28,622 nt of DNA. It comes from Myxococcota bacterium (GTDB lineage: Bacteria > Myxococcota_A > Bradymonadia > UBA4248 > JAVFAO01). This document shows positions 25,129 through 28,100 of this stretch, piece by piece (position 1 is the stretch's first letter; each line of letters starts with the position of its first letter). The stretch is from positions 1 through 28,622 of the forward strand of contig JAVFAO010000040.1 of NCBI GenBank assembly GCA_034002465.1, written 5' to 3'. Made by a program: the position numbers and the translations under genes. The notes below the pieces were generated by a model. The model did no database searches. It saw only the letters and a program-made list of their open reading frames with translations, and had not been told where the DNA came from.

Positions 25129-28100
25129 CTAGTCCAGGCTGCGGGTGACTTTGCTGGCACCCAGAATCTCCTTCAAGATGCTCGACATATCCTTGCCCTT
25201 GAAGAGGCTCACCAGGTTCATGTTGGCCGCCACCTCCCCCAAGAGGAGCTGGTCACCCAAGGCAGTCAGGGCTTCCACCAGCGCCGGTTGCACGGCGCGA
25301 CGCTCTGCGACCGTGGCCTGCGCTTGCGCCTCGAGCAGGGCGATTTCCAGAGCGTTGAGTAGCGCTTGATGTTGGGCCTGCTGGGCTTGTTCCTGTGCGC
25401 TCAGCTCGAGTTTGGCCAGCAAGTCTTGTTTCCAATGATCGAGCTGGCTCGCGAACGCGAGCTCGTCGCGGTCGAGCTGCGCCCGCAACACCGCCTCCTC
25501 ACGCTTGGCCGTGAGCTCGGCTTGCTCCTTGGCGCTCAGCTCTCGAAGCCGAAGCTGCTGCAACGAGGCGCCAAGTCGAAGCTCCCTCAATCGCTCGTCG
25601 AGCTCGGCCTGCTTCTCCTGCATTTGCCGACGAAGCTGTAGCCGCTCGAGCTCGATGGAATGCAGCAGGGTTTCGCTGCGAAAGCGATCATGTTCCCGTC
25701 TATCATCGATCTGCCGGGTCACGCTGTCTCTCTGCAGCGTTCCGAGGAGTTCACCGATCTCATCATCGAGAATACTGCTCTCGAGCACTTCGACATCGTG
25801 CAGCCACAAACCCACGTCAGGGAAGAAGCGTCCTCTTTGTCCAGACTCCGTTCTCTCGCTGAGGATGGCATCTCTGATGAGATCGGGCAATCGAGGCCAC
25901 AGCTCCATGAGCTTGTGGCGGCGAAAATGCTGTCGAAGCAGTGAGCGCAGGTGCTCACACAGGGTACCGACGTAGTCAGGATGATTGAACCACTTGTCTC
26001 GATGATTGCGGTCCATGGAGAGGCGGTAGCTGAGTCGCACCTCGAGGGCGACGTAATCGGCGCTCTCGAGCTGCACCTCGTCGGAGACCACGTTGCCCAC
26101 GGTGCGCAGATAGCAGGTCTGCAGCGGCTGCGCGTCGTCCTTGGGGACCCCGGTCGAGAGTGAGAGGCTGACGAGGCGCTCGTCGTAACCCAAGATCTCG
26201 ACGCAGGGGCCTTCGACCACGCGCTCACCGGAGCCAGAGGCGACCAAGACCGCCGTGTTGTGCGGGATGTTGATGGAGATGGCCCAGGGCGTGGTCACCG
26301 CGACATTTCTTCGTTTGTGAGGCTCAACGGCACCTATCCAGAGGTTCCAGTCCTCGGCGGAGACGGTGCGCGTCACCTGCACCTCATGGCGAGGATCGAC
26401 GAGGTAGCTCTGCTTCCCACGGATCAGACGCACCTCACCGCTGGCCAGGTCGCGGACGTAGATACCGCTCTTTTGGTCGATACCGATGGTTTCGACGAAG
26501 ACCTCGGAGTGGTCGTTGCCAATGTGCGGCAATCCGCTGTGCGGATGCAGGATCTCCGCTTCAATGAAGGGAAAGAAGAAGGTGTTCACGCCGCTCAGCA
26601 GCAAGGCGTCGCCTGGCAGGTACTGCTCCTGCTCGAGCTTGATGCCAAGGGGGAGCTTCTCTTTGAGCTGCTCTCGGCTGATGGGCGCCACGAAGCGCAG
26701 CCACAGCGCACGCTGGGCGAGGAGCTCGTAGGCGTTGTAGATGCGCTCGCTTGCGCCCTGCGTGAGAAAGAGGTCGTAGGGTCCAGGGAACACGCGGGCG
26801 GGCCCGTGTTTGATTTGGCGCTTTCCGTCTGCGTCGATGAGCACGCAGAACTGCTTCTCGCTCAACACCACCGCTTGCCTGACGAGGCGAGCCTTGCGCA
26901 CCTCACGCTCGAGCGCGCGCCGGTGCACCTCGCTGCCCAGCAGGCCTTGAAGATCATCTTGGGAGAGCTCAGGCAGCTCGCCTTGGTGCTCGGCTGGCTT
27001 GGAGGGAGCGGCAGGGGCCTTTCCACCAACGGCCCAGTCTGGCGGCGCTGTCGCCCCTTGTGGTGATGGAGGCAAATCGAAACCAGAACCGCCGCGAAGC
27101 AGGTCCGCTGGTGCGCGGGGCGAGCTTGCAGAGACCGGCATGGGCGGTCGTGCGGACAGGCCAAGCGAGGGCGAGGGCATCGGAGAAGCAGCCGGGGGCG
27201 GAATCGGAGCATCGGAATCGTCGCGCTCGCGTCGGCTTCGCAGCTCCTGCCGCCGCTCCTTCTTGAAGCGCTTTTTCGGTGTAGGCTCGTCCATGAGCTC
27301 GTCGATCTCGATGGCCGATTCTTCGGCCTCGCAATCACCGAAGTCGTCTTCCTTCTCTTGGAGCTCCTGCGCTGCGTTGAAGGATTGGGACTGGCTCCCT
27401 GCGCCTGCTGGCGCGCCTCCTCCCTTTGCAGACTGCCATGGGGCGGCTTTGGCTTTGGGGCGAGGCTTGGCCTCGCGCTCCTCGCTGCTCGCGAAGAACG
27501 CGCTTCCCTCTTTGGGTTCCGGCTCTGAGGGGGGCGTCGGTTCCGCAGTTTTGCTCAAGAGTTGCCGTGCCGCTTCTGCGCTCAGGGTCACGCCCTCGCC
27601 GACGCTCAGGTCAGGCACGACGTCGACACCCGTCGGTGGGATGTAAAACTGCGTGTCGAGCCCCCGAATGACGATGAGCTGACCTCGCTGCAGTTCGCGC
27701 TCCTCACGCGCGCTCAGGGCGAGCTGCGCGTCTCCATGCACCTCCTCGGCGGTGGCCGTAGTGATCCCCGCCGAGAGTGCGGTCACCCGATAATACGGCG
27801 CGTCTTTGTCCACCTCACCGTAGCACTTGACCACCAGATACTGGTTGGAAGCGAGCTCGTGGGCGTCGCGGATTTCGACCTCTTGACCAGGACGCAGGTA
27901 AAAGCTGCAGGGGCCAGGGATCATGCTGCGCGTGCCGTTGGCCAACGGCCGAGACTCGTTGCGCGCGGCCTTGAAGTTGCCGTTGGGGCCTTCCTCGGGG
28001 CGACGATCGAGCAGGGGGTTGTAGAGCACGGCGTACTGGCCGTCGCTCAGCTCGACCATGCGCTGAGGTTGCCAGATGCTCGCCTCGATGAAGCCACCCT

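Follow-up and report, generated by a model that had tools for sequence, protein, structure and literature searches.

The stretch of DNA analysed here (the window) comprises 28,622 nucleotides (nt) of Myxococcota contig JAVFAO010000040.1 and encodes, at its right end, a 1039-residue protein related to the major vault protein (MVP). We found that this protein is a member of the MVP family in its bacterial, seven-repeat form, and that its array of beta repeats is interrupted by a 241-residue insert (residues 215-455) at the seam between the repeats corresponding to R3 and R6 of eukaryotic MVP. The insert represents a new variant feature within the MVP family; in its own subfamily it stands at the long, motif-less, degenerate end of a variable region. 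On balance, we favour an account in which these residues form an in-frame disordered loop that is extruded from the shell wall and acts as a flexible charged tether.

The largest open reading frame (ORF) at the right end of the window spans 25129..28284 on the minus strand. It opens at ATG 28284, 12 codons ahead of ATG 28248 (MSERGS), which is the start shared by homologues and by the NCBI annotation. Since the homologues begin at MSERGS, ATG 28248 is taken as the real start. The extension upstream of it (28249-28284, minus strand, MCRAGLSWSRCI...) is probably untranslated, judging from this comparison. Pfam PF11978 (MVP_shoulder) matched residues 719-828 with 61 bits against a gathering cut-off of 25 (E = 1.5e-16), and Vault_3 (28.3 bits, cut-off 28.8) and Vault_4 (19.9 bits, cut-off 22.9) both fell slightly under threshold. 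A single-sequence phmmer search of the 1039-residue protein against the PDB gave no match and a family profile was required; the profile built from 60 homologues matched rat and human MVP with an E value of 7e-36. Identity to eukaryotic MVP is approximately 20-29%. Two AlphaFold2 (AF2) models were built. Model 1, covering the full length with 60 close homologues, reached a predicted local distance difference test score (pLDDT) of 57, with the N-terminal block below 50, and did not separate disorder from a shallow alignment. It was replaced by model 2, which covers residues 1-590 with a more diverse alignment and has a predicted template modelling score (pTM) of 0.67. The best Foldseek matches to the AF2 model were the human and rat vaults (E = 1e-22), and for the model of residues 1-590 the best match was the crystal structure of murine MVP R1-R7 (E = 3e-9). 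Secondary matches, through the shoulder, were to the SPFH cage proteins flotillin, prohibitin and HflK/C; these aside, MVP structures were the sole significant matches to the models. The Pfam match, the family profile and Foldseek thus bear out the original prediction, made from the letters of the DNA, that this is an MVP homologue. An array of vault-type beta repeats of approximately 55 residues lies N-terminal to the shoulder, which is followed by a cap-helix coiled coil and then a cap-ring tail.

To count the repeats, we used P0337, a rodent MVP keeping the rat numbering, as the eukaryotic reference. A second candidate reference, P0292, was dropped because this isoform lacks R6 to mid-R9 and gave misleading hhalign registers. 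Residues 457-715 of the bacterial protein aligned with rodent MVP 271-510 (R6-R9) at a probability of 99.1% (E = 6.5e-19). Residues 53-216 aligned with rat 263-379 at 96.4%, as a pair of the same two repeat types that make up R2-R3 and R6-R7. The N-terminal block therein consists of an R1-like repeat and one repeat pair. Direct alignment to R1-R3 is weak (E = 0.02), and we take the N-terminal repeats as the equivalents of R1-R3, a labelling that rests on collinearity and fold. Eukaryotic R4-R5 found no counterpart in the bacterial family with hhalign (probability 0.1%). The bacterial protein thus carries 3 + 4 = seven repeats. Its insert is found at the R3|R6 seam, the place of R4 and R5 in eukaryotes. 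The original prediction, which had the insert splitting the MVP repeat region, needs correcting here: the array is not nine contiguous repeats (R1-R9) but a 3 + 4 array interrupted by the insert. The nine-repeat array marks the eukaryotic form and not the wider family, since gap-less bacterial homologues likewise have seven repeats.

The boundaries of the insert were defined by comparison with those homologues. A profile search of 1.84 billion cluster representatives returned 1254 relatives, the best 150 of which were examined by local hmmsearch with hidden Markov models (HMMs) of the N-terminal and the post-linker blocks. In approximately 85 of these 150 the two blocks are directly contiguous, with a gap of about zero. 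In such gap-less proteins, which are more distant bacterial homologues, IPPTG(I/V)EVVP is followed by 4-9 residues and then by (Y/F)VRxAVxL..(F/Y)C. In the window protein, the residue-level alignment reads IPPTGVDVVPDL, 241 residues, and then VRQAVVLSEKQFC. The helices at the entry and exit of the insert are absent from gap-less homologues. By these alignments, residues 215-455 (26884..27606) are a true in-frame insertion with sharp boundaries. The earlier placement at 26886-27576, which corresponds to residues 225-455, was right within 10 residues, and the sequences quoted for it lie where they were said to lie.

Could the region instead be a pair of degenerate MVP repeats, remnants of R4 and R5? 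In linear order it does occupy their place, and to that extent the suggestion that the insert replaces repeats holds positionally. However, hhalign detected no similarity between the insert and eukaryotic MVP (probability 0.05%), and the reverse comparison of R4-R5 with the bacterial family failed as described above. The region is 16% proline and 13% hydrophobic, no beta strands are predicted in it, and its pLDDT lies below 50. Because gap-less homologues exist, with their 4-9 residues at this place, the seven-repeat wall is complete without the insert, which goes against replacement in any stronger sense. We regard the degenerate-repeat explanation as effectively refuted. The claim that the region is an insertion between two repeat blocks rather than divergent repeats therefore stands, as does the claim that eukaryotic MVP has no comparable linker at that place.

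The core of the insert has the properties of a disordered linker, namely compositional bias, low hydropathy and no stable predicted structure. Compared with the rest of the protein, residues 233-427 are enriched in proline (16.4% vs 4.5%, binomial p = 3e-10), alanine (14.9% vs 8.1%, p = 0.001), serine (10.8% vs 6.3%, p = 0.01) and lysine (6.7% vs 3.3%, p = 0.01), with no enrichment of glutamate or arginine (p = 0.12 and 0.9). The proposed Pro/Ala/Ser/Glu/Arg richness was thus right for its first three residues, to which lysine must be added, and wrong for the last two. Hydrophobic residues make up 13% of the core vs 32-38% of the folded blocks, and by the Uversky criterion (H 0.386 vs 0.428 at the boundary) the core is classed as disordered. 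In two independent AF2 models its pLDDT is below 50 (residues 248-423) and it shows nearly no secondary structure; a short helix at 333-337, in the basic block, appears in model 1 only. Because model 2 is confident on both flanks (pLDDT >90 for residues 11-210 and 451-585), the low confidence of the core does not come from a weak alignment. The disorder check attached to the original prediction accordingly came out in its favour. The charged clusters are also real: the extreme 15-residue windows carry charges of -8 and +7, and both together arose in 11 of 20000 shuffles. The acidic block (295-321) immediately precedes the basic block (325-342), and the net charge over the linker is -8.

The 120-member subfamily that we defined consists of the window protein and its 119 nearest homologues, which are 47-67% identical. 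It occurs in Polyangium, Byssovorax, Minicystis and many metagenome-assembled genomes (MAGs) of Polyangia and other Myxococcota, and in a few MAGs labelled Planctomycetota or Thermoanaerobaculia. All 119 homologues carry a linker at the R3|R6 seam, with 79-155 residues between fixed anchors vs 224 in the window protein. Among GTDB species representatives (one genome per species), subfamily inserts are 100-163 residues long vs 241 here, which makes this insert the longest of the subfamily, by approximately 80-140 residues over those members. Length and sequence thus change fast (79-224 residues between the anchors) with the flanks conserved: column conservation is below 0.3 and alignment occupancy 0.16-0.8 in the core, vs a conservation of 0.8-0.97 in the flanks.

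The subfamily insert has a fixed order of parts: a helix, a proline/alanine spacer, an acidic block, a basic block, the motif (V/I)DQSARxR, a second proline/alanine spacer and a conserved 26-residue helix. The entry helix is kept across the subfamily as LTAxAARxIL. The exit helices have a subfamily conservation of 0.75 and the consensus LSxxDxQxLLxSDxHRxALEREVRKARL. The acidic block precedes the basic one in 112 of the 120 members, and in the homologues the basic block lies a median of 8 residues ahead of the DQSARxR motif. The motif itself is present in 119 of the 119 other members, compared with 38 of 6000 shuffled inserts (0.6%). The window protein retains both flanking helices and the acidic-then-basic order. 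The basic stretch, singled out earlier as a possible nucleic acid- or cargo-binding element, is on present comparisons part of this subfamily-wide acidic-then-basic pattern. Two segments of the window protein were considered as the missing motif and rejected: LGLSARPPMPV, which MAFFT placed under the motif, was not matched by the motif HMM, and RQELRSRRER obtained no score with it. A motif hidden by compensating frameshifts was also rejected, as the other two frames are without it. As to lineage specificity, the insert is not private to this protein, being present in all 119 nearest homologues, and other lineages carry other inserts.

Several such inserts occupy the same seam. P0125, 44% identical, has an insert of approximately 248 residues with the same layout (proline-rich, acidic, basic, proline-rich) and without the motif, and P0126 has a motif-less insert of approximately 425 residues. 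Approximately 20 of the best 150 representatives carry a helical insert of 85-140 residues with ordinary composition. In P0123, a metagenome protein of 1129 residues, a PspA/IM30 (ESCRT-III-like) domain (residues 280-446, PF04012, E = 2e-11) lies at the R3|R6 seam. A Myxococcales MAG (HKST-UBA02; L022, match 4001-6538) has a 43-residue insert of nearly pure poly-Asp/Glu, without the motif. A second Myxococcota MVP paralogue, 38-41% identical, was found in Nannocystis, Enhygromyxa, Labilithrix, Bradymonadia and others (loci L067-L083). At its seam it has a conserved helical module of 87-102 residues, 'QFSVLKNELRHR..L..G.RAVMLTALD', rather than a low-complexity loop; the module lies within the match at approximately 4001-6700 of each locus. 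Both paralogues occur together in one MAG, Prado144 (L010 and L082). It is very probable that the disordered insert sits at a subfamily-wide hot spot for insertion.

How the insert might work was considered from its geometry. Since 4-9 residues suffice to close the seam in gap-less relatives, both ends of the insert have to lie next to each other. Model 2 has a pTM close to the ordered fraction of its chain, which is about one-third disordered. This suggests that the helices and both flanking repeat blocks are modelled as a single rigid body. In the mechanism we propose, the two conserved helices would form a stalk, and the polyampholyte core of approximately 190 residues would be extruded from the barrel wall once per subunit, giving a ring of flexible charged tethers about one-third of the way up the wall. 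Across the subfamily, the motif and the charge blocks would probably serve to recruit or hold a partner (a protein or a nucleic acid) or to link adjacent subunits by electrostatic zipping. The window protein would have lost or replaced whatever part of this role depends on the motif, and its extra length would probably reflect relaxed constraint on the spacers.

Several observations weigh against this account. The motif (V/I)DQSARxR is missing from the window protein in all three frames (best motif-HMM score -3.2 bits), which makes it the sole motif-less member of the 120. The linker is not conserved: in the nearest relative (67% identical) it is 122 residues long by the same anchors, approximately half as long, and unalignable. 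GC content at third codon positions (GC3) is lower in the linker (0.55-0.75) than in the flanks (0.75-0.9). A second sequence of this insert was not found in the genome and metagenome collections searched, and the searchable literature holds no experimental report of closed-vault assembly by any bacterial MVP homologue. Comparison of three homologous loci revealed no conserved partner gene next to the MVP gene, and the window itself holds no recognisable one.

Much of this also fits an inert, permissive spacer, that is, a seam that tolerates insertions, with the extra length a neutral low-complexity expansion and only the flanking helices (elsewhere also the motif) mattering. The hypervariable length and sequence of the linker across the subfamily, the loss in this copy of the only conserved motif, the reduced GC3, the unalignable linker of the nearest relative and the toleration of very different inserts, from 43 to approximately 425 residues, at the same seam all speak for it. 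On the other hand, this protein shares its acidic-then-basic order with the subfamily (112 of 120 members), its charges are clustered beyond chance in the shuffling test, and 723 nt run without stop codons or frameshifts. P0125, which diverged independently, repeats the long, motif-less layout, suggesting a recurring long form rather than decay. We therefore regard an inert spacer as a tentative alternative of lower probability. Whether the insert works as a tether or bristle rather than as an inert spacer is, in our estimate, evenly balanced.

The extra length could also be an artefact of assembly or sequencing, produced by a chimeric join or by compensating frameshifts in a GC-rich, low-complexity MAG stretch. 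The protein is known from one contig, is a length outlier in its subfamily and is motif-less, and two metagenome scans returned neither a second copy of the insert nor a close full-length relative; the collections searched likewise held no close relative. However, the frame is open across the whole insert, the two conserved flanking helices are read in the correct frame and sequence, the block order of the subfamily is retained, and neither of the other frames conceals the motif. Inserts of such length and layout also occur independently, as in P0125. There are no direct or tandem DNA repeats to promote a mis-join, and on the same ground an origin of the insert by DNA duplication or a mobile element was rejected. 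An artefact is thus very unlikely.

The face of the shell to which a tether would project is a separate question. The shell wall is one domain thick, as is generally known of vault structure, and the seam can therefore open to either face. An outward loop would form an external corona, or entropic bristle, governing solubility, spacing or docking to cell structures, and the membrane-remodelling PspA/IM30 domain at the same seam of P0123 would be better suited to the outside. In the human vault, however, residues Q164, R169 and D214 of MVP bind the MINT domain of PARP4 from the lumen, 'in between two repeat domains' (PMC12280208). Because the equivalent human seam docks PARP4 MINT from the lumen, we lean slightly, by analogy, towards a loop that projects luminally, and consider the external corona rather improbable. 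A more speculative extension, to which we give low credence, is that different lineages plugged different modules into the seam and that in this protein each subunit has one loop serving as a luminal tether, which catches RNA or a client protein through its charge blocks. The modules would range from a disordered tether bearing a DQSARxR peptide to a small helical domain and PspA/IM30, and in the eukaryotic line they would be the two extra repeats R4-R5, which now dock PARP4. If true, this would amount to a cargo-loading device inside the shell protein and would offer a handle on the contents of bacterial vault-like particles.

We then compared the protein with known systems. The rat vault is a closed barrel of two half-shells with 39 subunits each. 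Eukaryotic MVP (rat and human; PDB 4V60, 4HL8, 9BW5) shares with the window protein N-terminal repeats of the same fold, R6-R9, the SPFH-like shoulder, the long cap helix and the conserved tail. It differs in having nine repeats vs seven and in lacking the 241-residue disordered insert at the R3|R6 seam; for the bacterial protein, moreover, particle formation is putative. No Rfam family, vault RNA included, reached its gathering score in the window, and no TEP1 (TROVE) or PARP4/vPARP domains were detected among the large ORFs of the window or in the three homologous loci.

Homologues of MVP have been reported, in the accessible text of two preprints, from the bacteria Enhygromyxa, Saprospira, Microscilla and Moorea (bioRxiv 10.1101/872010) and from phages (bioRxiv 10.1101/2023.11.10.566534). 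According to the same text, the occurrence of the family in Myxococcota and other gliding bacteria, the relation of the shoulder to band-7 proteins and the coiled-coil cap helix were already known (bioRxiv 10.1101/872010, 10.1101/2023.11.10.566534). The reported proteins of the Enhygromyxa/Nannocystis type are the second paralogue with a folded helical seam insert, whereas the window protein is the low-complexity one. Neither in the searchable literature nor in the accessible text of the two preprints did we find the seam insert, the motif it carries or the seven-repeat architecture described.

Three further systems offer partial parallels. The FtsZ C-terminal linker with its conserved peptide, a functional analogy only, resembles the subfamily insert in that a variable disordered spacer presents a short conserved peptide, and in FtsZ it is the composition and charge patterning of the linker that are conserved rather than its sequence. 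The FtsZ linker, however, is a terminal tail without homology to the insert, whereas the insert is a closed loop within a repeat array, and this copy lacks the conserved peptide. Arginine-rich capsid arms and encapsulin cargo-loading peptides, again functional analogies only, hold nucleic acid or cargo, and they share with the insert the display of many copies of a flexible charged segment on a shell protein. They are terminal and mostly net basic, whereas the loop here is internal, net acidic and built of one acidic and one basic block. Finally, R8 of rat MVP contains a small, charged, Pro-containing disordered loop at approximately 429-449 (4V60). It likewise represents a flexible charged loop tolerated in the vault wall, and in the family profile it aligns to a shorter bacterial segment. 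It differs in lying within a repeat, in its length of approximately 20 residues and in its position in the wall, compared with 241 residues at the seam.

To our knowledge, bacterial MVP homologues are almost unstudied, and the function of vaults is a long-standing open question. The comparison provides a concrete anatomy for bacterial MVPs, namely seven repeats with a single seam as the hot spot for inserts, and this seam is the same as the PARP4 docking site of human vaults. The motif peptide or the loop could serve to fish for partners or cargo of bacterial vault-like particles, and the seam marks a permissive position at which loops could be engineered into vault shells. For this gene alone the message is more modest, that of a long, motif-less extreme of a variable feature. 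The features of the gene and protein are listed in the table.

Features of the MVP-like gene and its 1039-residue product (positions in the window)
Feature	Residues	Positions	Strand	Basis or remark
MVP-like gene	1039 residues + stop	25129..28248	(-)	NCBI label: hypothetical protein, Myxococcota MAG; identical to P0001
N-terminal block	1-214	27607..28248	(-)	Three MVP-type beta repeats at ~9-55, 65-128 and 136-210; AF2 pLDDT >90
Whole insert	215-455 (241 residues)	26884..27606	(-)	Between IPPTGVDVVPDL and VRQAVVLSEKQFC
Insert entry helix, AEAARQLLSKTA	224-235	27544..27579	(-)	AF2 helix, pLDDT 54-61
Disordered low-complexity core	236-427	26968..27543	(-)	pLDDT <50, composition, Uversky, low alignment occupancy
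Acidic block, ELQEKEDDFGDCEAEESAIEIDELMDE	295-321	27286..27366	(-)	Minimum 15-residue window charge -8
Basic block, KKRFKKERRQELRSRRER	325-342	27223..27276	(-)	Maximum 15-residue window charge +7
Insert exit helices, QDDLQGLLGSEVHRRALEREVRKARL	430-455	26884..26961	(-)	AF2 helices 430-438 and 440-455, pLDDT 67-88
Four repeats equivalent to eukaryotic R6-R9	456-718	26095..26883	(-)	hhalign, family profile vs rat MVP
Shoulder (SPFH-like) domain	719-828	25765..26094	(-)	PF11978; pLDDT 83-94
Cap-helix	829-996	25261..25764	(-)	Single 168-residue AF2 helix; aligned by family profile to rat cap helix 647-801
C-terminal cap-ring-like tail, NMNLVSLFKGKD	997-1039	25132..25260	(-)	Conservation 0.84-0.87; short AF2 helices

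The MVP gene lies at the end of the contig, with 374 nt upstream of its start codon; neighbours further upstream are off the contig. It is convergent with a TPR/C39-peptidase gene, the second of two adjacent genes for C39-peptidase-like proteins (19287-21068 and 21159-24800, both on the plus strand); the product of this second gene has 1213 residues and many TPR repeats. PADLOC gave no match for the MVP gene. In two of the homologous loci, L001 (Polyangium spumosum, 6284-8074) and L002 (a Polyangiaceae MAG, 6048-7781), a gene for a MutS-domain-V protein of 577-596 residues is the immediate upstream neighbour of the MVP gene and has the same orientation, and large Ser/Thr kinase-AAA_16-TPR genes lie nearby. 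The third locus, L003, lacks this MutS-domain-V neighbour, and in the window the contig ends before the corresponding region.

Elsewhere in the window, an AbiL abortive-infection pair is encoded on the plus strand by AbiLi (586-2864, E = 1.7e-93, Pfam AAA_21) and AbiLii (3011-3841, E = 5e-26, Pfam RloB). It is directly followed by a gene for a Tpt1/KptA RNA 2'-phosphotransferase, with which it may form a small defence island. The plus strand also encodes a 1390-residue fusion of CheB methylesterase and CheR methyltransferase with PAS and PocR sensor domains (5730-9902), and a 1734-residue multi-PAS/GAF hybrid histidine kinase with a receiver domain (9899-15103), the start of which overlaps the end of the fusion gene by 4 nt. 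A protein of the SUKH/SMI1-KNR4 family, whose members are often immunity proteins of polymorphic toxin systems, is encoded on the minus strand (17861-18811) by an isolated gene that lies between one for a methyltransferase and those for the C39-peptidase-like proteins.

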